DNA from: an uncultured Bacilli bacterium
GTDB taxonomy: Bacteria; Bacillota_I; Bacilli_A; RF39; UBA660
Direction: 5' to 3'
Length of the DNA stretch: 64,000 bases
NCBI GenBank assembly: GCA_934085595.1
Contig: CAKOHK010000001.1
Location: forward strand, 145,705-209,704
In this document: positions 10,232-46,680 of the stretch, piece by piece
Position numbering within the stretch: the first letter of the stretch is position 1
Layout of the letters: each line of letters starts with the position of its first letter
Position numbers and translations under genes: made by a program
The notes under the pieces: model-generated
Told to the model about the DNA's origin: nothing
Databases searched by the model: none
The model's input: the letters and a program-made list of their open reading frames with translations, nothing else

Positions 10232-11266
10232 CTATTTATCAAGAACTAATCTCGTTAGTGAATCTGAATAATTAATTCCATTACTAAACTTACTAGCTTT
10301 ATTAAAAGTATCTACACTCATAGATGCAATCATATTATACTTAAGTTCTTTTAATATCTCATCATAATATTTAGTAGTAGAAACAAGTTGATCATTATAT
10401 TTTGCATTCTCTTCAAAAACTCTTGCATCTACACTATTATCATATTTTATTAATCTTTCTATACTATCATCTCCATATAAAAATCTAACAAACACATTTT
10501 CTAATCCAGTAGACCATAAAGAACCATTTTCATCTTTATATCTTGTATTTCTTTGAATATCATTAAGTATATCTACTATACGATCAAAATCATATGAAAC
10601 CCTATATTTCCTAATCATATCGCCTTCTACTTTTAAATAAGTATCATTACTACAATTACGAAATACAAGATACCTAATATAATCTTTTTTACTTATTTCA
10701 TCTATTACTTCATAACTTATTGCTTCCATAACTGATTCATATAAACTTTTAAGATTAGGAAGATTAGAAGCTACATTTCTTTGTCTATATAACTCTCTTA
10801 TTTTATATAATTCTTTAGCATTAGCATTATTATCTTCTCTTTCTTTTATTTCTTTATCTATTAAAGAAACTAAATCTTCTTCACCATTATATTTTAAAAG
10901 TCCACTAATCGCAAGAGCTCCCATATATTCATTACTAAAGCATATATCATCTAAAAAAAATTCTTCTTCATCTTCTTCATCAAAATCATAAGCAACTCCA
11001 AGTAACATCGCAGTAAGTTTATAAAGTAAAGAATGATAAACTAATTTATATTCTATTTTTCCATCTTTACCTTCTTCTATAGTACTATCATCAAACTTTA
11101 CATACTTAAAATCAAGATCTTTTTTATCAAGAACGCCTTTATCTAACTTACTAGAATATTCAAAGTTACCCTTTCTAATCTCTAAAAATAAATCTTTAAG
11201 TTTATCATAATCAATATCTACTTTATATTTATAAAGCATTCCATCTTTTTCTTCAATATATTTCAT
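10232..11266 (-). CDS. Tandem-array paralog 1 (344 aa), unknown function
   Basis: Starts MKYIEEKDGMLYKYKVDIDYDKLKDL and ends LTRLVLDK, with GGAGG 7 nt upstream. Shares an N-domain, a DLVSLIDKEIKERE hinge and a C-domain (ELYxQRxVAS..., INIFR-like, FPxxxYNM, YYxEILxEL) with 11292..16902. Confidence 0.6.
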   Translation of the reverse strand: MKYIEEKDGMLYKYKVDIDYDKLKDLFLEIRKGNFEYSSKLDKGVLDKKDLDFKYVKFDDSTIEEGKDGKIEYKLVYHSLLYKLTAMLLGVAYDFDEEDEEEFFLDDICFSNEYMGALAISGLLKYNGEEDLVSLIDKEIKEREDNNANAKELYKIRELYRQRNVASNLPNLKSLYESVMEAISYEVIDEISKKDYIRYLVFRNCSNDTYLKVEGDMIRKYRVSYDFDRIVDILNDIQRNTRYKDENGSLWSTGLENVFVRFLYGDDSIERLIKYDNSVDARVFEENAKYNDQLVSTTKYYDEILKELKYNMIASMSVDTFNKASKFSNGINYSDSLTRLVLDK

Positions 11267-11291
11267 TTCAAAACCTCCATTAAATACTATA

Positions 11292-12143
11292 TTATTTTTT
11301 AAGAACTAATTTTGATATTTCTTCTTCACTTACATCATTATCAAATTCCATTATTCTTGTAACTACTTCCTTAGGTCCAGTTTCAATTAATTCAAATCTA
11401 AGTTCATTTAATATCTCATCATAATAATCTTGAGGTAAACCTACATTCATATTATATTTACTATTTGGAAACTCTATTCTAGCATCCATTAATAATTTAA
11501 TAGTTTCATCTATGTTACCATTGCTTATAGTAAGTTTATCAGCAACACCAAGTTGCTTAAAACGTTCTAAGCATCCACGTCTAAATATATTAATTTTTTC
11601 TTTTTTACTATCATATTGTATTAATGCTGAAATATATTCCTTTCCATTTAATACACCCCTTAATATCTGTTCTAAATTAGTCTTTGTCACAAAATATTCA
11701 GAATCCATAAATCCAGTATTTTCATCCAAATTAGCAAGTATTTCTTCCATCTTTTGTCTATCAAATGTTACTTCAAATTTATAATAAGAATCACCATCTA
11801 TTTTTAAATATTGAGTTTCAGATAAAGCTAATACTTTTTTACCCTTCAAATACTCTTCTTTACTTATTTCATCTACTTTTTCAAAATCAAAGTATTTCAT
11901 AAACTCATCAAATCTACCTACAAATCCAATAGGTCCAAATCGTTTAGCTATTGCTTCTTTTCTATCATATAATTTCTTTATTTCACATAATTCTTTAAAT
12001 GCATTATCAAAATCTAGTGCTTTTCTAAAAGCACATTTTCTTCTTTCAATATCTTCATCTATTGATAATAGTAGTTTATCTTCTTCCCTAGCTTTTACAA
12101 GATATTTATAAAGCATTCCATCTTTTTCTTCAATATATATCAT
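11292..12143 (-). CDS. Tandem-array paralog 2, internally deleted (N-domain mostly missing)
   Basis: Likely start MIYIEEKDGMLYKY at 12143 with GGAGG upstream. The ORF track begins 8 codons earlier at 12167. After about 25 aa it jumps straight into the C-domain (KELCEIKKLYDRKEAIAKRF...) and ends ISKLVLKK. Confidence 0.5.
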   Translation of the reverse strand: MIYIEEKDGMLYKYLVKAREEDKLLLSIDEDIERRKCAFRKALDFDNAFKELCEIKKLYDRKEAIAKRFGPIGFVGRFDEFMKYFDFEKVDEISKEEYLKGKKVLALSETQYLKIDGDSYYKFEVTFDRQKMEEILANLDENTGFMDSEYFVTKTNLEQILRGVLNGKEYISALIQYDSKKEKINIFRRGCLERFKQLGVADKLTISNGNIDETIKLLMDARIEFPNSKYNMNVGLPQDYYDEILNELRFELIETGPKEVVTRIMEFDNDVSEEEISKLVLKK

Positions 12144-12156
12144 TTTAAAACCTCCT

Positions 12157-13346
12157 CTAATTAACACATATTATAATATGTTCTATTTTTTTTGTCAATG
12201 ATAATTTCATCACTTCTTCACTTATACCTTCATCAAACTCTACTGCTTTTTTAACTTCTTCCACGCTTTCACTATCAATTAATTTAAATCTTAGTTCACT
12301 TAATATCTCATCATAGTATGCTTGAGGTTCTACTGTTAACTTCGTATTAAATTTACTATAAGGAAATTCGGCTTTAACACTCATTAATCGATCAATAATT
12401 TTGTCTATATCATCACCCATATTATCAGCAATTTCTTTTAAACGTTTTGCATACTTACGTCTAAATATATTAATTTCTTCTTTTTCACTATCATACTTAA
12501 GTAATGATGAAATATCTCCTCTTCCCTTTAATATACTTCTTAATATACATTCTAAATTAGTACTTATTATTATACCTTCATAATTCATAAAGCCACTATT
12601 TTTAACTAGTTTATTAAGTATTTCTTCCATATTATCTTTATTATATGTTACTTCATATTTACAATAACTACCGCATTCTATTTTCAAGCATTGATCTTTA
12701 GATAAAGCAAATATTTCTCTATCTTTAAGATACTCTTCTTTATTTATTTCTCCTACTTTTTTGAAACTAATACAGCCCATAACTTCAGCATACTTATCTA
12801 AAAATCCTGCAGGACTTAAAAGTTTTGACGCTACTTCTCTTTGATAATATAACTCTTCTATCTTAGAAGCTTCTTTAAGTTTACGCTCAGAATCACGTCC
12901 ATACACTCCATCATCTATTATTTTTTTCTTCCTTCTATTTCTTCATCTATTAAAGAAACTAAACTCTCTTCTCCTTCATAATTCAAAAGATTAGAAAGAC
13001 CTAGTATTTGTACATAGTTACTATCAAACCTTTTACCACTAGCATATAGTTCTTTATCAAGCGCTTCAATATTATCATCAAAATCAGCTAACCTACTTAC
13101 ATATTTATAAAGTTTTGAATAGTAAGTTAAATGATAACATAGTCTTTCACCAATTTTACTTTCAGTAATACTATCAGCATAACAAAAATCTAAATCATCC
13201 GCCTTAAGTATTCCATCCTTTAATAACCTATGGTAAATAAAATTACCCTTTCTTATTTCAGAAAATACCTCTTCAAGTCTATCATAATCAATATCTACTT
13301 TATATTTATAAAGCATTCCATCTTTTTCTTCAATATATATCATCAA
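12157..13346 (-). pseudogene. Tandem-array paralog 3, split by a frameshift at an A7 homopolymer. The two ORFs are 12918..13346 (N-domain) and 12157..12906 (C-domain)
   Basis: The N-half ends ...LVSLIDEEIEGRKK*. The C-half continues in the +1 frame as IIDDGVYGRDSERKLKEASKIEELYYQRE. The junction is minus-strand ggaagAAAAAAAtaatag (plus T7 at 12921-12927). One extra A would give a single ORF of about 398 aa. Confidence 0.6.
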
Positions 13347-13365
13347 AAGCTCCCTTAAATCTGTA

Positions 13366-14562
13366 TTACTTTTTAAGAACTAATCTTGATACTATTTCTT
13401 TATTTATTTCACTTTCAAACTTTTCACATCTAGCATATTCTTCAAGATCCATAGTAGAAATTAAAGTAAACTTTAGTTTACTCATTATTTTTTTATAATA
13501 ATCTTGAGGTAACTTTACTTTCATATTATATTCAGCATTTGGAAAATCTTTTTTAGCCGCTTCTAATAACTCAGTTATACGCATCAAATCTTCTTCATTT
13601 TTTCCTTTTTTATTTAACAGCTCTTCAATCTCTTTATAACGCTCATTACATTCTTTTCTGAAAATATTAATTTCTTCTTCAGCACTATTATAATTGATAA
13701 GTTCAGAAATATTAGCTTTACGATCAAATACATCACGTAATATATCTTCTAATTTAGTGGAACGTACATAGACATAAGGTTTATATCCAGTATTTCTATA
13801 TAAAGCATCAGACAATTCTCTCATATTATTTCTATTAAATGTTACTTTATATTTTTGAACATTGTTTCCTTGCACTCTTACATATGTATCATAGCTTTGA
13901 TTAGTAAAGCCTAAATATTTTTCATAGTCTTCTTTACTTATCTCATCTACTTTTTCAAAACTTATAGTTTCCATAACAGATTCATATAGTTTTGAAACAT
14001 CTAAAAGACTAGCTGCTTCTTCTCTTTGATTATATAACTCTTTTATTTTATAAGCTTCCCTAAGTTTCTTATCAAAATCAAATTTATTTTTTTTACTTTC
14101 TAACACTTTAATTCTTTCTTTAATTTCTTCATTTATTAAAGAAACTAGATCTTCTTCTCCATCATATTTTAAAAGTTCAATAAGACTTAATAGTTTTAAA
14201 TATTCACTATCAATCTTTCTATCAAGAGGGTACATTTGATCAGCAAAGTATAAATCATCTCTATGACATTTAACCTCATCTTCATAGCCAAGTAATCTAC
14301 CAATAATTATATAAAGTCTTGAACAGTGAACTAATTCATAACAAGTACCCAACATATCACCATTATTAGAAAGCAAATTCTTTTGATCAAACTTTGTATA
14401 TTCAAAATCTATATCATCCCAGTCATGTATATCTTTACCTAATGAACCAGTATAATAAAAATTACCTTCTTCTATCTTTAACATTAATTCTTTAAGTCTT
14501 TCTTCATCAATATCCACTTTATATTTATAAAGCATTCCATCTTTTTCTTCAATATATTTCAT
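13366..14562 (-). CDS. Tandem-array paralog 4 (398 aa)
   Basis: MKYIEEKDGMLYKYKVDIDEERLKEL ... VSRLVLKK. Full two-domain architecture. Confidence 0.6.
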   Translation of the reverse strand: MKYIEEKDGMLYKYKVDIDEERLKELMLKIEEGNFYYTGSLGKDIHDWDDIDFEYTKFDQKNLLSNNGDMLGTCYELVHCSRLYIIIGRLLGYEDEVKCHRDDLYFADQMYPLDRKIDSEYLKLLSLIELLKYDGEEDLVSLINEEIKERIKVLESKKNKFDFDKKLREAYKIKELYNQREEAASLLDVSKLYESVMETISFEKVDEISKEDYEKYLGFTNQSYDTYVRVQGNNVQKYKVTFNRNNMRELSDALYRNTGYKPYVYVRSTKLEDILRDVFDRKANISELINYNSAEEEINIFRKECNERYKEIEELLNKKGKNEEDLMRITELLEAAKKDFPNAEYNMKVKLPQDYYKKIMSKLKFTLISTMDLEEYARCEKFESEINKEIVSRLVLKK

Positions 14563-14587
14563 TTTAAAACCTCCCTTAAATATAAAA

Positions 14588-15709
14588 TTATTTACAAAGT
14601 ACTAACTTAGATGCTACTTCTTCACTTATTCCACTTTCAAACTCTTCTACTTTCTTATATGTTTCAATATCCATAGAAGAAACATTTTCATAATTAAGTT
14701 CACATAATATCTTTTCATAATATCCATATGTTGGAACTATACTCATATTATATTCTGCATAAGGAAAACTATTTCTAACTTCTTCTGTCACATTAATAAG
14801 ATCATCAACACTATTAGAATCTAAAGTGCCTATCTTTTTGGACTGTTCCATGCACTCTCTTCTATATATATTTATTTTTTCTTTATCAGGTTCGTAACTC
14901 AATAATGAAGTTATATTAGTTTTACCATTAATAAACTCAATTAATAGTTTCTCAAGTTCTGTACTTTCAAACTTACCAGAAGCATCCTTATAACGAGTAT
15001 CCATCTGCATAAGACGAAGTAAATAAACAAGACGATTCATATCAAAACATACTTTATTTTTATTAATATATTTTCCATCTTTTACCAAGAATGAATTATT
15101 ATCACATTTACATAGTTCCCTATATTTAGTATAATCTTTCAAACTTATTTCATCTATTTTTTCATAAGTTATTGTATTCATAATATCACTATAAAACCTA
15201 GTAATATCAGGAAGACTAGCTGCTTTTTCTCTTTGATTATATAGTTCTTTTAATATATATAGTCTAGTAAGTCTACCATTAAAATCATATTTAGATAAAC
15301 CACTATAAAGATTCTCTTTTCTCTTTTCTATTTCTTTATCTATTAAAGAAACCAAATCCACTTCCCCACTATAACTTTCAAGTTCATAAAGAGCATACAT
15401 CCTATCATACTCATCACAGTTACTTTTAGAAATTACATCATACTCTAATAATCTATTAGCAAGCTTATATAAATTAGAATAAAGAACTAATTCATAAGAT
15501 AACCCTTTTTCTCTACTAATACTATCTTCATCAAAATCTATATATGAAGTAAAATCTAAATCTTTATATGTAAGTGTTCCTTCTTCTACATCATGACTAT
15601 AATAAAAATTACCATCTTCTATCTTTAATATTAATTCTTTAAGTCTTTCTTCATCTATATCCACTTTATATTTATAAATCATTCCATCTTTTTCTTCAAT
15701 ATATATCAT
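14588..15709 (-). CDS. Tandem-array paralog 5 (373 aa)
   Basis: MIYIEEKDGMIYKYKVDIDEERLKEL ... ASKLVLCK. Confidence 0.6.
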   Translation of the reverse strand: MIYIEEKDGMIYKYKVDIDEERLKELILKIEDGNFYYSHDVEEGTLTYKDLDFTSYIDFDEDSISREKGLSYELVLYSNLYKLANRLLEYDVISKSNCDEYDRMYALYELESYSGEVDLVSLIDKEIEKRKENLYSGLSKYDFNGRLTRLYILKELYNQREKAASLPDITRFYSDIMNTITYEKIDEISLKDYTKYRELCKCDNNSFLVKDGKYINKNKVCFDMNRLVYLLRLMQMDTRYKDASGKFESTELEKLLIEFINGKTNITSLLSYEPDKEKINIYRRECMEQSKKIGTLDSNSVDDLINVTEEVRNSFPYAEYNMSIVPTYGYYEKILCELNYENVSSMDIETYKKVEEFESGISEEVASKLVLCK

Positions 15710-15735
15710 TTCAAAACCTCCTTTAAATACTTATA

Positions 15736-16902
15736 CTATTTACCAAGCACTAATTTAGATGCTGCTTCTTTATTTACTTCACTATCAAACTCTTGAGCTT
15801 TGTTATATATTTCACTATCTAGTGAAGGAATAAAAGTATATCTAAGTTCCTTAATTATTTCTTCATAATATGAATCAGTTGAATCTATGCTCATATTATA
15901 TTCAGCATATGGAAACTCATTTCTAAGTTTTTCCATTAGCTCAATCTCACCATCAATATTTTCTTCACTAAGTAAACCAATCTTTCTATAGCGTTCAGCA
16001 CATTTCTTTTTAAAAATATTTGCTTGTTCTTCTTCACTATTATAATTAATTAATGAAGAAATATCTCCTCCTTCATCAAGTATATTAACTAATATACGTT
16101 CTAAATTAGTTGGTACTAATCTTCCATCAAGAGCTTTAAATCTTGTATTATCTTCAATACTTTCTAATATATTTCTCATTCTCTCTTCATCAAATGAAAC
16201 TAAATATTTTCTAGCGTTTTCATTTTCAGTTTTACTAATAATTCTTGAGTTATAGTTAGATAAAACTAAATAAGCCATATAATCTTCTTTTAGAATCTCA
16301 TCTATTCTTTCAAAACTTATAGTGCTCATAACAGCATAAACAAATCTTCTAGCGTCCACAACGTCAGATGCCACTTTTCTTTGTTTATATAGCTCCTTTA
16401 TCTTATAAAGTTCTCCGCACTTTCCAGCATAATCAAACTTAGATGGTTCATTTCCGAGTAAACTTTCTCTTTCCTTAATTTCCTCATCTATTAAAGAAAC
16501 CAAATCCTTTTCACCATTATAATTTAAGAGTTCAAAAAGCCCAGAAGTCATTATATAATCTCTAATATCATCTTCATCACTAAATGGCTCCACGTAATAT
16601 TCTTCAATATCTTCAATATCTTCTTCCATACCAAGTAGTTTATTAACAATCTTATATAAATTTGAATAATAAACAAGTTCATATCTAGAACTAAATAAAC
16701 CGTCACTAAAAATCCAATTTATACTATCAAATCTTGTATAATCAAAATCTAATTCATCAAACTCTAACTTATCTTCATCTAGCGAATTAGAATATTTAAA
16801 GTTACACCCTTTCATCTCATTAAATATTTTTCTAAGTCTTTCTTCATCTATATCTACTTTATACTTATAAATCATTCCATCTTTTTCTTCTAAATATATC
16901 AT
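15736..16902 (-). CDS. Tandem-array paralog 6 (388 aa)
   Basis: MIYLEEKDGMIYKYKVDIDEERLRKI ... ASKLVLGK. GGAGG lies 12 nt after the stop of the upstream metallophosphoesterase gene. Confidence 0.6.
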   Translation of the reverse strand: MIYLEEKDGMIYKYKVDIDEERLRKIFNEMKGCNFKYSNSLDEDKLEFDELDFDYTRFDSINWIFSDGLFSSRYELVYYSNLYKIVNKLLGMEEDIEDIEEYYVEPFSDEDDIRDYIMTSGLFELLNYNGEKDLVSLIDEEIKERESLLGNEPSKFDYAGKCGELYKIKELYKQRKVASDVVDARRFVYAVMSTISFERIDEILKEDYMAYLVLSNYNSRIISKTENENARKYLVSFDEERMRNILESIEDNTRFKALDGRLVPTNLERILVNILDEGGDISSLINYNSEEEQANIFKKKCAERYRKIGLLSEENIDGEIELMEKLRNEFPYAEYNMSIDSTDSYYEEIIKELRYTFIPSLDSEIYNKAQEFDSEVNKEAASKLVLGK

Positions 16903-20300: not shown

Positions 20301-21818
20301 TTATTCTATAACAAATGGATTATCTTTACTTCCATCACCTGACATATATTGCACACTCGAAGATAAAAATAATACGGGTCTTATATTATTATCAGTGTTA
20401 GTAGGCAAATAACTAGTTAAAGATCCATCATTAACTATGTTCATTACATTAGCAGCACTACCAGAACGAGGCGAAATTGTCCAATAATAAGAAGAATTAG
20501 CTAACCAATTAGTACTTGTACAAGTAGAATTATTATATGAACTTCCTAAAGTAGATGTATTATAGCATCCGCTACTTGCATACATATAATCACTCGGATA
20601 TACAAGTCCAACTTCTCCATCCCATGTTTGTTTATTTCCACTTGGCACACTTGTACTTCTTTCTTGAGTATATACTTGTTTTGTATTTCCAAAACTCATT
20701 CCATTTAATACTATATTTCCAAGATACCATTTTGTACTGCTTATTTGATTTCTTGCTTCAGCCGTTAATCCATTACTTGCATATGTTCCAGTTCTATTGT
20801 AATAATTCCCACTATTTAATGTTGTCTTTAAAGATGCTGTTGTCCAATCATTTTTTGATGCAGAAAACGCCACTTTTCCTATTTGATTCCTAATTATTTT
20901 TACTTTATTTTCTTTAGTATATGTTCCATCTTCATTTGGTGTTTCCACTTCAAATACCCCAATTATTCTCCATCTCTCAATTTCATCATTAAATGTTATA
21001 TAATTATTTGGACTTTTACCTTGATATCTATATTCAGTTGAATTATATTTTTGATTACCTGTTGCAGTTTGGTCAATTTTGGTTAGCTTCAAAGTTTGAT
21101 AATTACTTACTAAATACGTCACCAAAGATTTACTTTCTTCAAAATATAAACTGCATTTAGTTTGTTTATTTGAACCTATAATTATTTTTTTATTTAAAGT
21201 ATCATATTCTACTGTAGCATCATTATTACAAGTATAACTCTTTAACTTATAATATTTATTTAAATCGAGTTCATTTACTCTCTCACTATCAACATATAAT
21301 GCTGTTGTTTCAAAATCATATTTCCAGTAGTCATCTAAAATTTCTGTATATGTATCAAGAACTTTAATTTCATCTACGTCGTTAAATGAATATCCCCCAA
21401 ATACCATAAGTGATAATGTTTGTTTTTCATTGCTTTCATTTTTAATTATAAGTGATATTGTTCTTTTAGTGAGTATTCCTCCAAATGCTGGTTCAAGATA
21501 ATCTGAAGCATATTTAACATCAATGTAATCGTTATTTAAATATGCAAGTTTATAGTTAGTAGAAACTGCATTTAAACTTGTTATTTCTATAGTATGTTCT
21601 GTTTCTCCTGGATCTATATCAATAGTATAAGTGTTTTCATCATCTATTTTTATAGAATACAAAAGTTCCGAAATATACATTTCATTACTTCTATAACTTT
21701 CACTGTTTATAGTAAACTTCGCATAACTAAATGCAAGTAACGGACAAAGTCCGATCAACACTAAAACTATAAAAATGTTTTTCTTTATATAATATATTAC
21801 ATTTTTTCTTATACTCAT
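20301..21818 (-). CDS. Secreted TasA/camelysin-like protein with the shared unrecognised C-terminal domain (family member P1)
   Basis: 505 aa. Signal peptide ends ...LLAFSYAKFTINSE (SipW-cognate-like). C-terminal 260 aa carry NYQTLKLTKIDQTATGNQKYNSTEYRYQG, WRIIGVFEVETP, NQISSTKWYLGN, YPSDYMYASSGCY and NIRPVLFL. Confidence 0.6.
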   Translation of the reverse strand: MSIRKNVIYYIKKNIFIVLVLIGLCPLLAFSYAKFTINSESYRSNEMYISELLYSIKIDDENTYTIDIDPGETEHTIEITSLNAVSTNYKLAYLNNDYIDVKYASDYLEPAFGGILTKRTISLIIKNESNEKQTLSLMVFGGYSFNDVDEIKVLDTYTEILDDYWKYDFETTALYVDSERVNELDLNKYYKLKSYTCNNDATVEYDTLNKKIIIGSNKQTKCSLYFEESKSLVTYLVSNYQTLKLTKIDQTATGNQKYNSTEYRYQGKSPNNYITFNDEIERWRIIGVFEVETPNEDGTYTKENKVKIIRNQIGKVAFSASKNDWTTASLKTTLNSGNYYNRTGTYASNGLTAEARNQISSTKWYLGNIVLNGMSFGNTKQVYTQERSTSVPSGNKQTWDGEVGLVYPSDYMYASSGCYNTSTLGSSYNNSTCTSTNWLANSSYYWTISPRSGSAANVMNIVNDGSLTSYLPTNTDNNIRPVLFLSSSVQYMSGDGSKDNPFVIE

Positions 21819-26358: not shown

Positions 26359-28500
26359 ATGAATAAAGAAATAATAAATGAATTAGTACAAGAATTAAAC
26401 ATTAAGAGTGTCCAAATAGAGAGTGTTCTTAAATTATTAAGTGAAAATAACACTGTTCCATTTATAGCTAGATATAGAAAGGAAGCTACCGGCAACCTTA
26501 ATGAGGAAGAAATTAGAAGAATTAATGAACTTTATACTTATGAGTGTAATTTACTTAAGAGAAAAGAAGATGTTATTAGGTTAATAGATGAAAAAGGTCT
26601 TTTAACTGATGAGTTAAAGAATAATATAATGAGTGCTAAGAAATTAGTTGAGGTTGAGGATATTTATTTACCTTTCAAAGAGAAAAAGAAAACTAAAGCA
26701 ACTGAAGCTATTAAAAATGGTCTTGAACCTCTTGCTAAAATAATTATGTCACAGCCTGCTACATTTAATGATGATATTATAAATAAATATTTAAATGAAA
26801 ATGTTAAGACTAAGGAAGATGCTATCACTGGCAGTAAATATATAATCGCAGAATGGATAAGCGATAATGCTTACTATAGAAAATATATAAGAAGTTATAT
26901 ATGGAAAAACGGTAATCTTACTAGTACTTTAAAACCTAAAAGTAATGATGAAAATAAAACATATGAAATATATTATAATTTTACTGAACCAGTAAAATAT
27001 ATTAAATCACATAGAGTTCTTGCTATTAACAGAGGTGAAAATGAAAAAATACTTACTGTTAAAATAGATATTAATGATGAAGATATAATTAAATATTTAG
27101 AATCAAGAATAATTAAAAAAGACTCTATAGTAAATGAATATATTAAAGATGCTATTAAAGATAGTTATAAAAGATTAATATTCCCTTCTATCGAAAGAGA
27201 AATAAGAAGTGAACTTACTCTTAGAAGTGAAGATGTTGCTACTAAAGTATTTCAAGATAACTTAGAGCATTTACTTCTAGTGCCACCTATGAAAGATAAA
27301 GTAGTACTTGGCTTTGACCCAGCATTTAGAACTGGATGTAAACTTGCTATTATTGACCCAACAAGTAAAATATTAGGTATATTTAAAATATATCCTCACG
27401 AACCACAAAATGAATGGGAAAAATCTAAAGAAGTATTAAAAACACTTATTAAAAAATATAATGTAGACATAATTGCTATCGGAAATGGAACTGCATCAAG
27501 AGAAAGTGAAAAGCTTGTAAGCGAAACATTAAAAAAAATGAATACCGCTTGTAAATACGCTATTGTAAGTGAAGCAGGAGCTAGCGTATACTCAGCATCA
27601 AAATTAGCAATTAGTGAGTTTCCAGATTTACACGTAGAAGAAAGAAGCGCTATATCTATCGGAAGGCGTCTTCAAGACCCACTAAATGAATTAGTTAAAA
27701 TCGATCCTAAAAGTATCGGTGTCGGTCAATATCAGCATGATATAACTCCTAAAAAACTAAGTGAATCTTTAGATTTCACAGTAATAAAATGTGTAAATAA
27801 CGTCGGAGTAAATATAAATACCGCTTCCCCTTCTATACTAAAATATATCTCAGGCCTAACAAAACCAGCTATAGATAAAATAATTAAATATAGAGAAACA
27901 AATGGTAAAATAAAATCAAGAAAAGAAATAAAAGATAAAAAAATACTAAATGATAAAATATATGAACAATCAATAGGTTTCATGAGAGTAATTGATGGAA
28001 CTAACCCACTTGATATAACAAATATACATACAGAAAGTTATGATATTGTTACTAAACTTCTAGAAAGTATAAACTCTTCTGTAAATGATCTTGGTACAAA
28101 AGAACTTATAGATAAATTAAATAATATTAATATAGAAGAAAAATGTAAAGAATTAAATACTGATATTTATACTCTTGAAGATATTATTAAATCTCTTGAA
28201 ATGCCTAATAGAGATTATAGAGATAACTATGATATGCCTCTTTTAAAAAGTGATATATTAACTATAGATAATTTAAAAGTTGGTATGGAACTTGAAGGAA
28301 CAGTAAGAAATGTAGTAGACTTCGGAGCATTTATTGATATAGGTCTTCATGATGACGCACTTGTTCATATATCAAAAATAACTAAAAAGTTTATTAAGCA
28401 TCCAAGCGAAGTATTAAGTGTTGGTGATATAGTTAAATGTTATATATTAAATATTGATAAAGATAAAAACAAAGTATCTCTTACTCTAATAAAAGAATAA
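26359..28500 (+). CDS. tex: Transcription accessory protein Tex (YqgF/RNase H-like, HhH and S1 domains)
   Basis: 713 aa. N-terminal PFIARYRKEATG and a C-terminal S1 domain (GTVRNVVDFGAFIDIG). Confidence 0.9.
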   Translation: MNKEIINELVQELNIKSVQIESVLKLLSENNTVPFIARYRKEATGNLNEEEIRRINELYTYECNLLKRKEDVIRLIDEKGLLTDELKNNIMSAKKLVEVEDIYLPFKEKKKTKATEAIKNGLEPLAKIIMSQPATFNDDIINKYLNENVKTKEDAITGSKYIIAEWISDNAYYRKYIRSYIWKNGNLTSTLKPKSNDENKTYEIYYNFTEPVKYIKSHRVLAINRGENEKILTVKIDINDEDIIKYLESRIIKKDSIVNEYIKDAIKDSYKRLIFPSIEREIRSELTLRSEDVATKVFQDNLEHLLLVPPMKDKVVLGFDPAFRTGCKLAIIDPTSKILGIFKIYPHEPQNEWEKSKEVLKTLIKKYNVDIIAIGNGTASRESEKLVSETLKKMNTACKYAIVSEAGASVYSASKLAISEFPDLHVEERSAISIGRRLQDPLNELVKIDPKSIGVGQYQHDITPKKLSESLDFTVIKCVNNVGVNINTASPSILKYISGLTKPAIDKIIKYRETNGKIKSRKEIKDKKILNDKIYEQSIGFMRVIDGTNPLDITNIHTESYDIVTKLLESINSSVNDLGTKELIDKLNNINIEEKCKELNTDIYTLEDIIKSLEMPNRDYRDNYDMPLLKSDILTIDNLKVGMELEGTVRNVVDFGAFIDIGLHDDALVHISKITKKFIKHPSEVLSVGDIVKCYILNIDKDKNKVSLTLIKE

Positions 28501-28530
28501 TTGACATATATGTATCACTTTTGATACAAT
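28501..28530 (+). promoter_or_regulatory. Promoter (TTGACA-18-TACAAT) driving a probably leaderless HTH gene
   Basis: ttgaca 28501-28506 and tacaat 28525-28530. ATG at 28539 lies about 8 nt after the -10. Confidence 0.45.
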
Positions 28531-28538
28531 ATAAAACC

Positions 28539-28799
28539 ATGAAAGAAGAAAATATAAATTATATTAAACCTAAAAGAACTATTAATGAACTTGAAAAAGA
28601 TTTTTTAAGAGAATTCAAAATATTTAGAAGAGAAAACAACCTAACTCAAAAACTAATGGCTGAATATACTCTACTTACAAGAGAAAAAATAGCCAGAATT
28701 GAAACAGGAGCACACTCTCCTACTTTAAGGACATTACTTACTATTTTAGGTCCTTTAGGTTATACACTTAAAATCGAAAAAATAAAAAGAAAGCACTAA
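28539..28799 (+). CDS. XRE-family helix-turn-helix transcriptional regulator
   Basis: NLTQKLMAEYTLLTREKIARIETGAHSPTLRTLLTI is a Cro/C1-type HTH. The ORF-track start at 28521 is a TTG inside the -10 box, so ATG 28539 is preferred. Confidence 0.6.
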   Translation: MKEENINYIKPKRTINELEKDFLREFKIFRRENNLTQKLMAEYTLLTREKIARIETGAHSPTLRTLLTILGPLGYTLKIEKIKRKH

Positions 28800-28805
28800 A
28801 ACATT

Positions 28806-28830
28806 GAGCCTACAATAAGGCTCTTTATCT
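28806..28830 (+). terminator. Rho-independent terminator after the tex/HTH gene pair
   Basis: gagcc-tacaataa-ggctc hairpin followed by tttatctt. Confidence 0.55.
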
Positions 28831-28997
28831 TGTACAATTAAAAATATACTTACTTCAAATTATAAGTATATTTTTTTATTTTATTCACTCTATTCTTTTT
28901 AATCTTATATAATATAACCCTAGTTATAACAAGTACTATACTAAGTATTAAAGCACATATAAATAATGTACATAACCAAATATCTTTTTCCATATAT

Positions 28998-29741
28998 CTA
29001 CTCCATATCATTTATTATAAGATTACATTTATTAAGAAGACTATAATATTGTACATCATTATTCTTATATAATATAGGTATCTTGTTATTAAATAAATAC
29101 CCAGTTATATTTTTAAAAAATCCTTCTCTTAAAATAGTATAATCTATATTAGCCCCTATTATTTCTATCATTTCTTCATAACTAAAATATTGATCTTTAA
29201 AATCAAATGCACTATTATAAAGTACTTTATATTTATAAATTCCTATATCATTAAACATAGTTATAACATTTTTCATATTCTTAATATTTACTATATCATT
29301 AGTAAGAATAAGTAGTACTTCATCACATAAATTAAATATATTTTCATTAAAATCATTATAAGAACTATTAGTATCTATAACTATAAAATCATATATATTT
29401 TTAGCATCTTCTATAATTTTATCCATATATTTTTCTTTAATTAAACTTGCTTCTAATTGTATTTTAGTAGAACATAATATATCAAGTCCTTCATTATAAT
29501 TATATACATAATCAAGTATACTTTCATATTTATTATTCTTTATATCATTTGATAATGTATATATATTCTTTTTTATTTCTTCATTTACAAATAAAGATAA
29601 TCCTCCATCATATAAATCTGCATCTATAAGTAATGTTCTTTTTCCCATAAGATAACTACTACCCGCTATATTAGCAGATATTATTGATTTTCCTACTCCA
29701 CCCTTAGGTGAGTACACACATAACACTTTACCCTTTTTCAT
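28998..29741 (-). CDS. ParA/MinD/CpaE-family P-loop ATPase
   Basis: 247 aa. Deviant Walker A SPKGGVGKS and LLIDADL. Confidence 0.7.
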   Translation of the reverse strand: MKKGKVLCVYSPKGGVGKSIISANIAGSSYLMGKRTLLIDADLYDGGLSLFVNEEIKKNIYTLSNDIKNNKYESILDYVYNYNEGLDILCSTKIQLEASLIKEKYMDKIIEDAKNIYDFIVIDTNSSYNDFNENIFNLCDEVLLILTNDIVNIKNMKNVITMFNDIGIYKYKVLYNSAFDFKDQYFSYEEMIEIIGANIDYTILREGFFKNITGYLFNNKIPILYKNNDVQYYSLLNKCNLIINDME

Positions 29742-29750
29742 AATACTTCC

Positions 29751-30191
29751 TTATTTAAAACATTCACTATAAATACTATTTGATGAAACATTTTTATCTG
29801 TATAATATTCACTACCACATGCTAAATATACATTTGCTCCAGTACTATCAAATGTTATAACTCCTTTGCAATCGGTTTTACTATATTTAACACTTTCTAT
29901 ATAAGGTTCACTTCCACTAGTAAGTTCACTTAAGCACACAAACTTACTACTATTATAAGTAGAAGGACATGTATAAAGTTTTCCAGTTTCAGGATCATAT
30001 AAAGGATCCGTGCAGTGTTCATTAACATATATATTTGCTGCATCTTTAACATTATTTTCTACTATTTCCATACTTTTATTAAGAGAGTTTTTATAACTAT
30101 CAACAACATTTGGAACAACCATAATAGCAAGCACACCAATAATTGCAATAACAGCAAGTAATTCTATTAAAGTAAATCCACTCTTTTTCAT
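29751..30191 (-). CDS. Type IV pilin / pseudopilin-like protein (prepilin-type N-terminal methylation domain)
   Basis: MKKSGFTLIELLAVIAIIGVLA is a class III signal with G-F cleavage and E+5. Cys-rich C-terminal region. Confidence 0.8.
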   Translation of the reverse strand: MKKSGFTLIELLAVIAIIGVLAIMVVPNVVDSYKNSLNKSMEIVENNVKDAANIYVNEHCTDPLYDPETGKLYTCPSTYNSSKFVCLSELTSGSEPYIESVKYSKTDCKGVITFDSTGANVYLACGSEYYTDKNVSSNSIYSECFK

Positions 30192-30199
30192 ATATTCTC

Positions 30200-30448
30200 C
30201 TATCTAAGTTTAATAACAACAATTATAAACACAATAATTATCATAAATATAAGCGTTAGTAATATATAATCAGTTATCTTCATCATTCTTTTCTTTTTAA
30301 CTACACTCTCTTCTTCAGATATTTGTGTTTTAGTTACAATTGGATCCATTTTAATTGTATTCATTAATTCTTCATTATTTATATCATCATCTATATTTTT
30401 ACTCATAATCAACTTCCTTACTATATATAATAATATCAAAATCACCAC
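30200..30448 (-). CDS. Small single-TM membrane protein
   Basis: 82 aa. Confidence 0.35.
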   Translation of the reverse strand: MVILILLYIVRKLIMSKNIDDDINNEELMNTIKMDPIVTKTQISEEESVVKKKRMMKITDYILLTLIFMIIIVFIIVVIKLR

Positions 30449-30482
30449 ATTAATTCAAGGGCATATTTGTTAAAAAAAGTAC

Positions 30483-30503
30483 AAAAAAAGCATCCGAAGA
30501 TGC
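30483..30503 (-). terminator. Rho-independent terminator following tRNA-Arg
   Basis: gcatc-ttcg-gatgc hairpin followed by a T7 run on the minus strand. Confidence 0.6.
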
Positions 30504-30516
30504 TTATTTACTAAAG

Positions 30517-30593
<77 letters not shown>

Positions 30594-41629: not shown

Positions 41630-43630
41630 CTATTTTATTTCAAATGCAAAGCACGAACTTCCATTACCTGTAATATATGTTACATTAGATTTAAGATATA
41701 ATGTAGGCTGAAAGCCAGGAAAAGCACTATTTGTATCTTGAGGCTGAACTTCGCCATTAGCTGACACAGCTATTGAATTATGGAATATATTAAAGAAAGT
41801 AGGCATAGGTGAAATAGTTAAATTATGAGAATTAACATATAACCAATTTGTATTCCTACAAATACTAGCTCTATAATCTGTATTACAAGTATTTAAATTT
41901 GAACTACATGATGAATTATTATAATCACACGCTTTTTTTGTACTATCATTATAGCAACTACTACTTGCATACATATAATCACTTATGTATATTAACCCTA
42001 CTTTTCCATCCCAAGTTTGACTATTTCCACTATCTACACTTGCGCCTCTCTCTTGGATATATACTTCTGGTGCTGTTTTAAGAAGTCCACCATTTGATGC
42101 ATTATAATCTATGTTACCTATATACCATTTTGTACTACTTATCTGATTTCTTGCACTGTTTGTTAATCCATTATTAGCATATGTACCAGTTCTATTAAAA
42201 TATTCTCCACTATTTAAAGTTCTCATTAATGACGATTTTGTCCAATTGTTTGTACCTGCAGAATCCCAAGCAGCAGCTCCAATTTGATTTCTCACTATTT
42301 TCACTCTATACTGTTTTGTATAGCCATTACCATTAGGAGTTAATACTTCAAAGACTCCAATAATTCTCCACACACCATTATCCATATTTATTCCGGTTGT
42401 CCACATTCCTGTTTCTCCATTAAATATAATATAATTGTTAGGATTTGCCCCTTGATATCTATATTCTGTAGTAGCATAATTTTGATTACCTGTTGCTGCA
42501 TGTGATATTTTAGTTAAACCTAAAGTTTGATAATTACTTATAAGACAATTTGCTAAAGTTTTACCAGAGCATAAAGATTCAATAGGATTATTCCATCTAG
42601 CAGTTAAAACAGTATTTTTAGTTGCTATAGTATTGCTTGTTACTAGATTTCCACTTTCATCATACCATCCGCCAAAATTATATCCGCACTTGCTTGTACT
42701 ACACAATGTTCCATATGTTTCACCTTGCATAACATTCTTTTTTGAGCATTCACTTCCACCATTAGTATCATATACAAGAGTATACATTTTCAAACTCCAC
42801 TTAGCATAAAGAGTAATATCGTTTTTTACTATATCAGTACTTTCAATTTTAGTTTCATATGTTTTACTAGTATACCATCCATCAAAAGTATAATTGTCTT
42901 TACTAGGAGTACATAAATCGCCATAAGCTTGCCCTTTTTGGATACTATCACTCGCGCATCCTCTACCACCATTATTATCAAAAGTTATCTTTTTCATATC
43001 TTTTTCAAATGATACATAACAGTCCATATCATCACTAACAGATAATAATGTTAAAGTATTATTATCATTTAACATACCACATGTATTAGAAGAATACTTA
43101 TATCCAAGAGATGGAATATATTCAAAACTAACTCTATCTAAATATCCAGCATACACTTTATTTTTATTAACTTTTCCCATACTTTCATCTGTACTAAATA
43201 AACTAACTATATACATATTTGTAAATCTCCATGGATCTTTATATGTACCTTTACCTGTAATTTTAGTTCCTTTTTTTACATATTCAGTAACTCTTATATT
43301 ACTATCATCACTATTACTATTATCAGATATCTTTTTACCACTAATCTCCCAGTATGAAAAAGATGCTGTAAGATAACTTAAATTATTTATTTTTGATGTA
43401 TTAACTTCATAATTATTTATAAGTCCTCCAGTAATAAACTTATTATCATAACTTATATTTTTATTATTATATATAAATGGAACTCTATCTTCTTTTATTA
43501 AATATATTTCATTCTTAACATTATTATTTATATAATTATTAGAAACACTTATAGTATCATTAAAAGAATATGCTTTTACATTTATTATCGTAAATAAAAC
43601 TAATAAAGCACTTATAATTATCTTCTTCAT
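41630..43630 (-). CDS. Secreted protein with two Listeria-Bacteroides (Flg_new) repeats and the shared C-terminal domain (family member P2)
   Basis: 666 aa. Signal peptide ...INVKAYSFNDT (TasA-like AxFND). Two ...YTFDGWY...LYAKW / YNFGGWY...LTARW repeats. C-terminal domain carries LTKISHAATGNQNYATTEYRYQG, WRIIGVFEVLTP, NQISSTKWYIGN and YISDYMYASSSCY. Confidence 0.6.
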   Translation of the reverse strand: MKKIIISALLVLFTIINVKAYSFNDTISVSNNYINNNVKNEIYLIKEDRVPFIYNNKNISYDNKFITGGLINNYEVNTSKINNLSYLTASFSYWEISGKKISDNSNSDDSNIRVTEYVKKGTKITGKGTYKDPWRFTNMYIVSLFSTDESMGKVNKNKVYAGYLDRVSFEYIPSLGYKYSSNTCGMLNDNNTLTLLSVSDDMDCYVSFEKDMKKITFDNNGGRGCASDSIQKGQAYGDLCTPSKDNYTFDGWYTSKTYETKIESTDIVKNDITLYAKWSLKMYTLVYDTNGGSECSKKNVMQGETYGTLCSTSKCGYNFGGWYDESGNLVTSNTIATKNTVLTARWNNPIESLCSGKTLANCLISNYQTLGLTKISHAATGNQNYATTEYRYQGANPNNYIIFNGETGMWTTGINMDNGVWRIIGVFEVLTPNGNGYTKQYRVKIVRNQIGAAAWDSAGTNNWTKSSLMRTLNSGEYFNRTGTYANNGLTNSARNQISSTKWYIGNIDYNASNGGLLKTAPEVYIQERGASVDSGNSQTWDGKVGLIYISDYMYASSSCYNDSTKKACDYNNSSCSSNLNTCNTDYRASICRNTNWLYVNSHNLTISPMPTFFNIFHNSIAVSANGEVQPQDTNSAFPGFQPTLYLKSNVTYITGNGSSCFAFEIK

Positions 43631-45198: not shown

Positions 45199-46680
45199 TT
45201 ATTTAATTATAAATGGATTAGTGCTTTTTCCGTTTCCAGAAACAAATTTTACATCAGCATTAAGATACACAGTAGGTCTTATATTGACATCACTAGCAGA
45301 ATCTACACCATTAATATATAAAGTACCTTCACTCTGTGCAATAAGTACAGCGTGTTGGTCTATAGATTCAGGTGACAACAACCAATAAACGGTATTATTC
45401 ATCAGCCAATTAGTACTAACGCACTCATCATCTTTATAATTTCCAGAGTCTGCCCCATCATAACATACATTACTAGCATACATATAATCACTAGGATATA
45501 AAAGTCCTACTTTGCCATCCCATGTTTGACTATTTCCATCCCATACATCAGTACTTCTTTCGCGTGTATATATGCTTTCTGCTGTTCCATAACCACCAGA
45601 AGAATAAACCTGATTACCAAGGTACCATTTCGTAGTACTTATTTGACTTCTAGCTTCATCAGTTAATCCAGTAGTTGTATAATCGCACAAAGGATTAGTA
45701 TCATCATATGGATGAAAATATATTGAACACCCAAGAGGAGAATATCCATATTGTCTATTAAAATATGCTCCTTCATTTAACAAAGTCATAAGTGATGCTT
45801 TTGTCCAATCATTAACAGAGCCAGAAGCAGAACTAAAATCCCAAGCTGCTTGTCCAATAGAATCTCTAACTATTTTAACTTTGTTTTCCTTTTTATAAGT
45901 TCCATCACTCTGAGGTGTTTCTACTTCAAATAATCCAACTATTCTCCACAGTCCCTCTTCTTTATTAAATGTAATATAATTGCTAGGATCTTTCCCTTGA
46001 AATCTGTATTCAGTAGTACTATATTCCTGATTTCCTGTAGCTTCATGCGTTATAGATATTAAATCAAGTTTTTTATAATTATCTATTAAAGTTTGAGCAA
46101 GTGTAGCTGTTTGAATACTTTCTGCGACACCAAGAACACCATAAAACTTCTTTCCTTGATTATAGTTTTGCGCTTTATCAGTATAATTAACAAAACGAAT
46201 TGAAACAGTGTAAGTATGAGTTTCTCCAGGTAATATTTTTTGTGATTCTTTATATGGATACAACACTTCACCCTTATTAGCTATAGCCTCAGTAGTAACT
46301 TGTGGCACAATAACTGTAGAACCATTAACACAGCTTCCATTATCAACACCACTACTACCACAAACGCATCTAATCATAAGTTCATCTTTTTGAATCCCAT
46401 TATAAAGCTTCTGCCATCCAAGACTATAATAAGTTTCTTCATTTCCTTTGTTTTCAACAGTTATAGTTTTCGTAGTTGTCCATCCAGGCTCTATATTTTC
46501 TGCAATTATTTGATTACCATCAGTATATTTAAGTTCAAGCTTAGTAGTACCAACATCTATAGTTTCAGCCACATCATTACCACTAACAGTCTGACTAAAA
46601 TACGCATAAGTAAGCCCAACCGTTAATAAAAATGCAACTGTAAGTACACTTCCATAAATAAACTTTTTATCTTTCATCAT
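45199..46680 (-). CDS. Secreted TasA/camelysin-like protein with the shared C-terminal domain (family member P3)
   Basis: 493 aa. Signal peptide ...VGLTYAYFSQT (AYFSD-type SipW-cognate motif), then TTKLELKY...NIEPGW...ITVENKG as in TasA. C-terminal domain carries ITHEATGNQEYSTTEYRFQG, WRIVGLFEVETP, SQISTTKWYLGN and YPSDYMYASNVCY. Confidence 0.65.
   Translation of the reverse strand: MMKDKKFIYGSVLTVAFLLTVGLTYAYFSQTVSGNDVAETIDVGTTKLELKYTDGNQIIAENIEPGWTTTKTITVENKGNEETYYSLGWQKLYNGIQKDELMIRCVCGSSGVDNGSCVNGSTVIVPQVTTEAIANKGEVLYPYKESQKILPGETHTYTVSIRFVNYTDKAQNYNQGKKFYGVLGVAESIQTATLAQTLIDNYKKLDLISITHEATGNQEYSTTEYRFQGKDPSNYITFNKEEGLWRIVGLFEVETPQSDGTYKKENKVKIVRDSIGQAAWDFSSASGSVNDWTKASLMTLLNEGAYFNRQYGYSPLGCSIYFHPYDDTNPLCDYTTTGLTDEARSQISTTKWYLGNQVYSSGGYGTAESIYTRERSTDVWDGNSQTWDGKVGLLYPSDYMYASNVCYDGADSGNYKDDECVSTNWLMNNTVYWLLSPESIDQHAVLIAQSEGTLYINGVDSASDVNIRPTVYLNADVKFVSGNGKSTNPFIIK

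Follow-up and report, generated by a model that had tools for sequence, protein, structure and literature searches.

A pilin, ATPase and microprotein cassette of probable Tad pilus descent in an uncultured gut Bacilli bacterium

We analyzed a stretch of 64,000 nucleotides (hereafter the window; assembly GCA_934085595.1, contig CAKOHK010000001.1, positions 145,705 to 209,704) from an uncultured Bacilli bacterium of the RF39 lineage. The source species is a prevalent, spore-forming inhabitant of the human gut with 26.7% GC, and its SpoVAC and SpoVAD genes lie near the locus studied here. This locus is a unit of four genes on the minus strand, separated by 4-10 nt, which encode in order a 68-aa membrane protein, a 146-aa prepilin, a 247-aa ATPase of the ParA/MinD fold and a 47-aa membrane protein (Table 1). 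A preliminary description of the window had reported a pilin-like gene, a ParA-like ATPase gene and a small membrane protein gene directly downstream of a tRNA-Arg. We confirmed these three genes, all on the minus strand, and added the 47-aa gene, which had been overlooked. The same description had placed the group between the tRNA with its terminator and tex; the tRNA side stands, but on the other side an XRE-type helix-turn-helix (HTH) gene intervenes before tex. The layout was identical on conspecific contigs in an exact-sequence look-up. Ahead of the 68-aa gene, a promoter-like site matches 9 of 12 consensus positions, and such sites are not commoner than in shuffled sequence. Upstream of the pilin, a search of Rfam for a riboswitch or other RNA returned only the tRNA.

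The prepilin, which contains GFTLIELLAVIAIIGVLA, is indeed a prepilin-type protein with a Cys-rich globular part, as had been proposed. It scored above the cutoffs of PF07963 (N_methyl; 3e-7, 30.2 bits for a cutoff of 21.2) and TIGR02532 (2.5e-7). Its class III signal peptide, MKKSG|FTLIELLAVIAIIGVLA, combines a short basic leader, G-1, F+1, E+5 and a hydrophobic alpha-1, the N-terminus reading MKKSG|FTLIELL. The AlphaFold2 (AF2) model, with a predicted local distance difference test score (pLDDT) of 85.9, has the lollipop fold of pilins, in which a helix (residues 8-61) carries a small, Cys-rich alpha/beta head with a beta-sheet. All six Cys residues align among the proteins of the window and of the related loci L017 and L019, and four of them are invariant in 13 family members (invariant positions G5, F6, T7, L8, E10, C60, C75, C108 and C125). 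The scores against the ComGC equivalog NF040999 (39.2 bits, cutoff 75) and GspG (34 bits, cutoff 89) were far under the cutoffs, and a hidden Markov model (HMM) of Flp matched only the shared N-terminal helix. Whereas a word-indexed search of the family gave 15 clusters only, an exhaustive HMMER search with a family profile found far more, with 59 representatives at E<=1e-30 and 933 at E<=1e-10. Many members are pilins of 130-170 aa; in others, which are 300-1,460 aa long, the ~150-aa module forms the N-terminus and is followed by BspA-type leucine-rich repeats (LRR_5), DUF285, DUF6273 or a flagellin-N-like helical region. Judged from sequence, this architecture is the one expected of a module displayed on a filament or on the cell surface. 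Seven long proteins (P0218, P0219, P0223, P0226, P0230, P0237 and P0268) look like modular pilins displaying adhesin-like domains.

The ATPase carries the deviant Walker A motif SPKGGVGKS that had been noted before (K13-GGVG-K18-S), and D40, D42 and the Walker B D123 are intact; K13, K18, D40 and D123 are invariant in 18 aligned sequences. It matched AAA_31 (7e-16), ParA, CbiA and MipZ, and scored far under the cutoff of every named NCBIfam equivalog (MinD, ParA, BcsQ and the Actinomycetota CpaE homologue), for instance 62 bits against minD_bact TIGR01968 (cutoff 212.9). The protein begins 12 residues before the Walker A motif and has no REC match, and thus possesses no N-terminal receiver domain. 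A sequence profile reached the Eubacterium rectale TadZ structure 3FKQ at 2.3e-7, only over 3FKQ residues 141-345, which form its ATPase domain. The AF2 model (pLDDT 93) was matched by Foldseek to 3EA0 with a template modelling (TM) score of 0.84 and to MinD with 0.77; its last helix (233-246), modelled at high confidence, ends in acidic residues. A search of 5.8 billion proteins gave a narrow family, in which the aligned sequences fall into two groups with 54-74% and 27-45% identity to the window protein. Members of the closer group do not lie in Tad operons, whereas every context examined for the 27-45% group was a complete Tad operon. When a genome collection was scanned with a generic Walker-A pattern, the matches listed were distant full-operon relatives and Actinomycetota CpaE, with neither the window's own species nor a locus of the window type among them.

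The complete operons of these relatives, which are low-GC gut Bacilli (examples L011, L013/14, L015, L021, L022-L027, L102-109, L124-131 and L132-141), have the order flp, an optional N_methyl pilin, tadE, tadE, tadZ, tadA, tadB and tadC, usually with a divergent DUF192 gene upstream. Their flp genes encode 62-71 aa with a leader ending in G|QAL(T/V)EY, and the start of tadA overlaps the stop of the tadZ-type ATPase gene. ATPase relatives with 36-46% identity lie directly upstream of a T2SSE gene (TadA) and two T2SSF genes (TadB/TadC), and homologues directly upstream of tadA were found at L011, L013, L015, L021-L027, L102, L124 and L132. The window ATPase aligned end to end with the TadZ of three complete operons (L013, L021 and L132) at 39-42% identity; in the window its gene is followed not by tadA, as in the relatives, but by the 47-aa gene and a terminator. 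Homologues of the window pilin sit between flp and tadE in the Tad operons of four species (L013, L021, L124 and L132), the pilin of L021 being 35% identical to it over 131 aa with the common motif ENxVxDAAxxYxxxxC. Since its homologues occupy complete Tad operons, the ATPase is a TadZ/CpaE-type protein without an N-terminal receiver domain, the counterpart of the receiver-less TadZ of these operons, and the window pilin is the counterpart of their non-Flp pilin. Taken together, these results make it highly probable that the pilin, the ATPase and the 47-aa protein (hereafter the trio) descend from a Tad (type IVc) pilus operon that is still complete in sister lineages. The suggestion of a Tad/Flp-like fragment in the preliminary description holds insofar as homologues of both proteins are found inside complete Tad operons with TadA and TadB/TadC.

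Several features of the complete operons were observed alongside. Flp and a class III globular pilin (G|FTL(I/V/T)E) occur within one Tad operon, the latter between flp and tadE, in the four species named above, and no description of Tad operons pairing Flp with a globular N_methyl pilin was found in the literature searched. The Flp pilins of L013, L021, L022, L023, L025, L102, L124 and L132 end in GGYLKD(A/S)I(T/Q)K(T/S)(S/G)C...C; such a tail with two Cys is unusual, Flp pilins being short and tail-less. DUF192 is divergent just upstream of flp in five complete operons (Table 1), an association that matches the one in Bulleidia extructa (PMC12786226). In the Erysipelotrichales, comG is inherited vertically and tad is patchy, with DUF192 alongside (PMC12786226).

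The remainder of a pilus system was looked for throughout the window. The TadA (queries from L013 and L021), TadB and TadC proteins of the relatives had no tblastn match in the 64 kb, precomputed Pfam annotation of ~10 kb on either side contained no T2SSE (PF00437), T2SSF or Peptidase_A24, and reading the remaining open reading frame (ORF) translations of the window gave no pilus-core candidate, in agreement with the missing core of the preliminary description. TadE had no match in the window, the locus holds no pilin of the Flp type (G|xxxxEY), and TadV was found neither in the locus nor in the window. Neither the locus nor the rest of the window thus encodes Flp, either TadE protein, the TadA motor or the TadB/TadC platform. 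Beyond the window, the three most abundant candidates among 6,263 TadA homologues (E<=1e-120) were looked up. P0152 (locus L102) came from the same cohorts with one shared sample, and its dinucleotide signature distance was 0.16, against 0.03-0.08 within the window. The signature of P0081 (locus L124) matched that of the window (0.038), as did those of other family members, and this candidate occurred in other cohorts only. For P0099 (locus L132) the distance was 0.08-0.10, and the 10 places shown were all from other cohorts. No repeats common to the window and the candidate Tad loci were found.

The 47-aa gene begins 4 nt past the stop codon of the ATPase gene and encodes an N-terminal transmembrane helix followed by a basic tail (KIKKNRVNKIKKYTYNLK). 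A homologue stands behind the ATPase gene at L017 and L019 (46-47 aa) and at L122 (49 aa), and it is this gene, not the 68-aa gene, that travels with the ATPase. The protein weakly resembles the first transmembrane helix of TadB and its K/R-rich K(F/I)xKY(T/S) segment. With an HMM of the 52 N-terminal residues of TadB, the copies of the window, L017 and L019 ranked 2nd-4th of 387 ORFs (E 0.007-0.04), and hhalign placed the family on TadB residues 12-43 with a P value of 0.007 and a probability of 5%. On this sequence likeness, the 47-aa protein is possibly an N-terminal fragment of TadB, which we regard as a lead and not as a result. Of the 10 conspecific contigs, L005 and L006, which come from different cohorts, carry a 104-bp deletion that removes the start codon and the transmembrane helix of this gene.

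The 68-aa gene has a different distribution. Its longest form runs from a GTG (30448..30200), and the likelier start is the ATG at 30406 behind AGGAAG, which gives 68 aa in agreement with the gene calls on conspecific contigs. The protein is bitopic, with an acidic N-terminal part of 40 aa, a KKKR cluster and a C-terminal transmembrane helix; the motif TIKM(D/E)PI is conserved in the acidic part, and no family match was obtained. A metagenome scan returned 12 related loci (L110-L121) that carry a homologue without pilin, ATPase or 47-aa gene, usually in the layout tex(-), tRNA-Ser(GCT)(-), 68aa(+), gltX(+), with an XRE homologue just past gltX in L111 and 1-3 kb past it in L113, L114 and L119. 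With L123 included, at least 13 related loci have this small conserved gene next to tRNA-Ser(GCT), gltX and tex. Twelve loci have the 68-aa gene but neither pilin nor ATPase; it is therefore a resident of a chromosomal slot and no dedicated pilus component, and its inclusion in the pilus group by the preliminary description was not borne out. Its size and first position would also fit the flp of L013 and L021, but the identity with a diverged Flp was rejected on sequence: an Flp HMM built from six relatives gave E ~0.6, no Gly cleavage site is present and the gene is widespread without pilus genes.

Table 1. Positions of the features discussed; coordinates refer to the window unless a locus is named.
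Feature	Coordinates	Strand	Remarks
tRNA-Arg(TCT)	30517..30593	-	ARAGORN; Rfam tRNA 68.7 bits; upstream neighbour, context only
Intrinsic terminator of the tRNA gene	30488..30505	-	hairpin AAGCATCTTCGGATGCTT + T-run; separates tRNA from cassette
Promoter-like site	30430..30458	-	TTGAAT, 17 nt spacer, TG-TATTAT; consensus match only, ahead of the 68-aa gene
68-aa membrane protein gene	30200..30406	-	first gene of the unit
Prepilin gene, 146 aa	29751..30191	-	PF07963, TIGR02532
ParA/MinD-fold ATPase gene, 247 aa	28998..29741	-	AAA_31, ParA, CbiA, MipZ
47-aa membrane protein gene	28850..28993	-	gene call on conspecific contig L001
Bidirectional hairpin terminator	28806..28823	both	common to the convergent XRE gene; end of cassette
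XRE-type HTH gene	28521..28799	+	between cassette and tex
tex	26359..28500		beyond the XRE gene
104-bp deletion, L005	~11195-11290		= window ~28890-28993
104-bp deletion, L006	~9563-9660		= window ~28890-28993
DUF192 gene, L013	8280-8600		divergent from flp
DUF192 gene, L021	8331-8657		divergent from flp
DUF192 gene, L102	5809-6138		divergent from flp
DUF192 gene, L124	7582-7872		divergent from flp
DUF192 gene, L132	7624-7920		divergent from flp
Class III pilin in Tad operon, L013	8870-9334		between flp and tadE
Class III pilin in Tad operon, L021	8924-9331		between flp and tadE
Class III pilin in Tad operon, L124	8123-8551		between flp and tadE
Class III pilin in Tad operon, L132	8184-8573		between flp and tadE
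Secreted paralogue	20301-21818	-	
Secreted paralogue	41630-43630	-	Listeria-Bacteroides repeats at N-terminus
Secreted paralogue	45199-46680	-	SipW/camelysin-type N-terminus; Peptidase_M73/camelysin 1.9e-6
Secreted paralogue	62479-63978	-	
Secreted-family member, L017	7354-9204		follows the trio
Secreted-family member, L132	13561-15060		two genes past tadC
Tandem array of six paralogous genes	10232-16902	-	~290-400 aa
Copy of the array apparently split	12157-12906 + 12918-13346	-	two ORFs
Copy of the array scanned against Pfam	13366-14562	-	no family

We then compared the states of this slot among relatives. The window, L017 and L019 each have an intact trio, the latter two with the layout 70aa, pilin, ATPase, 46-47aa. 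The ATPase and the small protein are intact in L122, whose contig starts just before the ATPase gene and does not cover the stretch where the pilin would lie. The gap between pilin and ATPase is 9-10 nt in the window, L017 and L019. The preliminary description had proposed to look for conserved synteny, and had named a lack of conserved linkage among the grounds for refutation; as linkage is kept in at least two further lineages and contexts, that lack is not what we found. Genes flanking the trio-type ATPases differ in every lineage. The tRNA-Ser(GCT) flanks the complete Tad operon in L021, the 68-aa gene with the trio in L017 and L019, and also the loci with the 68-aa gene alone, while the order 68aa-[trio]-XRE of the window corresponds to 68aa-gltX-XRE in relatives; the window version (tRNA-Arg, 68aa, trio, XRE, tex) represents this slot in rearranged form. 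Four states were thus observed: the full operon (L021), the trio (window, L017 and L019), the 68-aa gene with the pilin and no ATPase (L123) and the 68-aa gene alone (L110-L121). This series is most simply read as a stepwise reduction of a Tad operon. Most relatives are without the cassette, which has been lost wholly or partly in many of them and is dispensable.

The position directly downstream of a tRNA gene and the flanking genes that differ between lineages would also suit a mobile or defence island that had integrated at this tRNA gene. However, neither an integrase nor a repeat of the tRNA 3' end was present, no meaningful PADLOC family match was obtained, and 2.9 million viral contigs contained no relatives. 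Moreover, the same slot (68aa...gltX/XRE) is filled in every lineage, in keeping with vertical descent accompanied by rearrangement, and we consider such an island very improbable indeed.

The graded states within one slot, the missing motor and platform and the deletion of the 47-aa gene that segregates within the species would also be expected of a non-functional relic of a deleted Tad operon that is being lost. We evaluated this through sequence divergence. Among the window, L017 and L019, synonymous divergence (pS) of the cassette was saturated (0.43-0.71), as it was for gltX and tex, yet all four ORFs were intact and kept their length, and the catalytic and signal-peptide residues were invariant. 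Non-synonymous divergence (pN) of the ATPase was 0.12 between L017 and L019 and 0.24-0.25 between the window and either of them, and equals that of housekeeping genes (gltX, 0.20 between L017 and L019; tex, 0.11-0.17); it was 0.32-0.38 for the pilin and 0.32-0.42 for the 47-aa gene. Within the species, 9 synonymous and 4 non-synonymous differences were counted in the ATPase gene, and 14 and 5, respectively, when the 68-aa and 47-aa genes were included. The ATPase is thus as constrained as tex or gltX, and the trio is under purifying selection in several lineages. Because the ATPase is so constrained while synonymous sites are saturated, the cassette is unlikely to be a dead relic, and we give that explanation little credence. 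Between L017 and L019 the ATPase is 81% identical and GltX 67%, which raised the question whether the trio had recently been transferred horizontally. This was not supported: synonymous sites are equally saturated in both, and the gap in identity results from strong constraint.

Overall, we favour an account in which the Tad-derived trio still works with a filament machine. The 68-aa, pilin, ATPase and 47-aa genes would form one short transcription unit, to which the 68-aa gene would give only the promoter and first cistron. A prepilin peptidase would cleave the prepilin at G|F, and a type IV filament machine with genes in another part of the genome would then insert or assemble the cleaved pilin; this machine may be a second Tad core or a ComG competence machine. 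The ATP-bound ATPase dimer apparently lacks a membrane-targeting tail, and the basic cytoplasmic tail of the 47-aa protein, a putative tether like the N-terminus of TadB, would keep it at the membrane. Its role there would be that of a docking and positioning factor for the machine, comparable to that of TadZ/CpaE in relation to CpaF. At the inner membrane, dimers of CpaE/TadZ are arranged in a ring that surrounds the CpaF motor, and they contribute to placing the machine (PMC13170226; PMC6668835). In this complete form, with the pilin used elsewhere and the ATPase tethered and positioning, we give the account marginally more than even confidence.

Several observations weigh against it. No motor, platform or prepilin peptidase was shown in this genome, and for each of the three TadA candidates another organism is the most likely source. 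L123 shows that the pilin can be retained without the ATPase, the 47-aa protein resembles TadB only weakly, and its gene is deleted in two of the ten conspecific contigs. In addition, the loop CAPKDPRQ (window ATPase residues ~90-99) is invariant in 8 of 10 aligned TadZ proteins of Tad operons (the exceptions being the two most distant, P0043 and P0044), and all trio-type proteins have another sequence in its place, C(S/A)(T/P)K(I/T)QL(E/Q) or, in P0032, CAPISYKQ; from these alignments, the contact with TadA could have been lost or changed.

The replaced loop, the retention of the pilin without the ATPase in L123 and the far slower evolution of the ATPase than of the pilin (see the pN values above) would also suit two survivors without a common task. 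The pilin would then be an additional one for a machine encoded elsewhere, ComG for example; the ATPase would have been recruited, together with the 47-aa protein, to an unrelated membrane positioning job such as those of MinD, FlhG or other ParA-like proteins, and their adjacency would be merely historical. Against this, pilin and ATPase have remained adjacent at 9-10 nt in three lineages with saturated synonymous divergence, and no cargo or partner genes are conserved nearby, the contexts all differing; we regard this alternative as unlikely.

The preliminary description had also offered a minimal pilin-positioning module, which we take here as an autonomous, motor-less unit in which a membrane-tethered ATPase, for which the 47-aa protein serves as tether or activator, arranges the pilin-like protein without a motor. 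In its favour, three lineages with different contexts retain the trio as a unit that includes neither motor nor platform, and no Tad core could be tied to this genome. Short basic peptides activate ParA/MinD ATPases, and the basic tail of the 47-aa protein resembles them, an analogy by which it might act as an activator. On the other hand, the invariant class III signal makes sense only with a prepilin peptidase, an enzyme that usually belongs to a filament system; some strains do without the 47-aa gene, and known TadZ/CpaE proteins work on the TadA/CpaF motor (PMC13170226). Nothing favours this minimal module over the other readings, and it seems improbable to us. Its more specific version is doubtful to a slightly greater degree: after loss of TadA/B/C, the ATPase, tethered and perhaps activated by a TadB-derived micro-protein, would organise the processed pilin, in the membrane or the wall, without a conventional filament. 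If true, this self-sufficient module would show the N-terminal juxtamembrane segment of TadB to be the usual docking site of TadZ.

Other gene families of the window were recorded. Four secreted paralogues are encoded on the minus strand (Table 1), and members of the same family occur at L017 and L132. They have in common a C-terminal domain of ~280 aa with the motif ATGNQ.Y.TTEYRYQG...WR(I/V)(I/V)G(V/L)FE and no Pfam match, while their N-termini are variable, being of the SipW/camelysin type, made of Listeria-Bacteroides repeats or without match. The preliminary description had called several nearby secreted proteins TasA-like and asked whether they are functionally linked to the pilin group; one of the four paralogues matches camelysin, the other three do not. 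A copy follows the trio in L017 and another lies two genes past tadC in L132. As the 64 kb contain four copies, this adjacency to the trio and to Tad genes may be due to chance, and the support for a functional link is limited to these two adjacencies of a highly paralogous family. The window also contains a tandem array of six paralogous genes whose products start with M(I/K)YIEEKDGM(L/I)YKY(K/L)V; one copy is apparently split into two ORFs, and the only copy scanned matched no Pfam family.

We compared the locus with known systems. Its likeness to the Tad operons of monoderm bacteria (Bulleidia extructa, Bifidobacterium breve, Clostridia) is that the nearest relatives of the ATPase and of the pilin lie within such operons. 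In contrast to these, it keeps only the pilin, TadZ and the 47-aa protein resembling the TadB N-terminus, with no Flp, TadE/F, TadA, TadB/C or TadV in the locus or the 64-kb window, and the retained pilin is an N_methyl protein (G|FTLIE) with a globular head and not a Flp. With TadZ/CpaE proteins (E. rectale TadZ, 3FKQ; Caulobacter CpaE), the ATPase has in common the ParA/MinD fold and the deviant Walker A motif with its signature lysine, but its length is 247 aa versus about 370-410, it has no atypical receiver domain and it is uncoupled from tadA. As its C-terminus is acidic and packed in the predicted model, it appears to have no evident amphipathic membrane helix. The TadZ part of Bdellovibrio TadZA is likewise receiver-less, so that this feature is already known, and the tad genes of that organism are scattered over several loci (bioRxiv 10.64898/2026.07.08.737194). 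The pilin is similar to class III pilins of the ComGC/GspG type in its short leader with G-1, F+1 and E+5, its long alpha-1 and its small head, and its family to Gram-positive modular pilins in the LRR_5, DUF285 or flagellin-like C-terminal modules; however, it falls far under the ComGC/GspG cutoffs and has no comGA/GB neighbours. MinD, FlhG and FleN provide the best structural and sequence matches of the ATPase among solved proteins, yet no MinC/MinE or flagellar genes are neighbours and the C-terminal membrane-targeting sequence of MinD appears to be missing. Because motor, platform and Flp features are not found in the locus, it is not a complete member of any pilus system.

The diversity and decay of tad loci are already well known, and no description of a motor-less Tad remnant under selection was found in the literature searched. 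The locus is such a case, a piece of a pilus operon without motor or platform that has been kept under selection through deep divergence. Reductive evolution of Tad operons can explain an orphan-looking pilin beside a ParA-like ATPase, which helps in annotating the many uncultured low-GC gut Bacilli. The related loci document a clade of Tad operons in which Flp, a class III pilin with a globular head and a TadZ without receiver domain occur together. Should a further Tad or Com machine be encoded in this genome, the cassette would count as an ordinary accessory pilin set. The locus also suggests a contact between TadZ and the N-terminus of TadB, and it represents a natural experiment on what TadZ/CpaE is capable of away from its cognate tadA.

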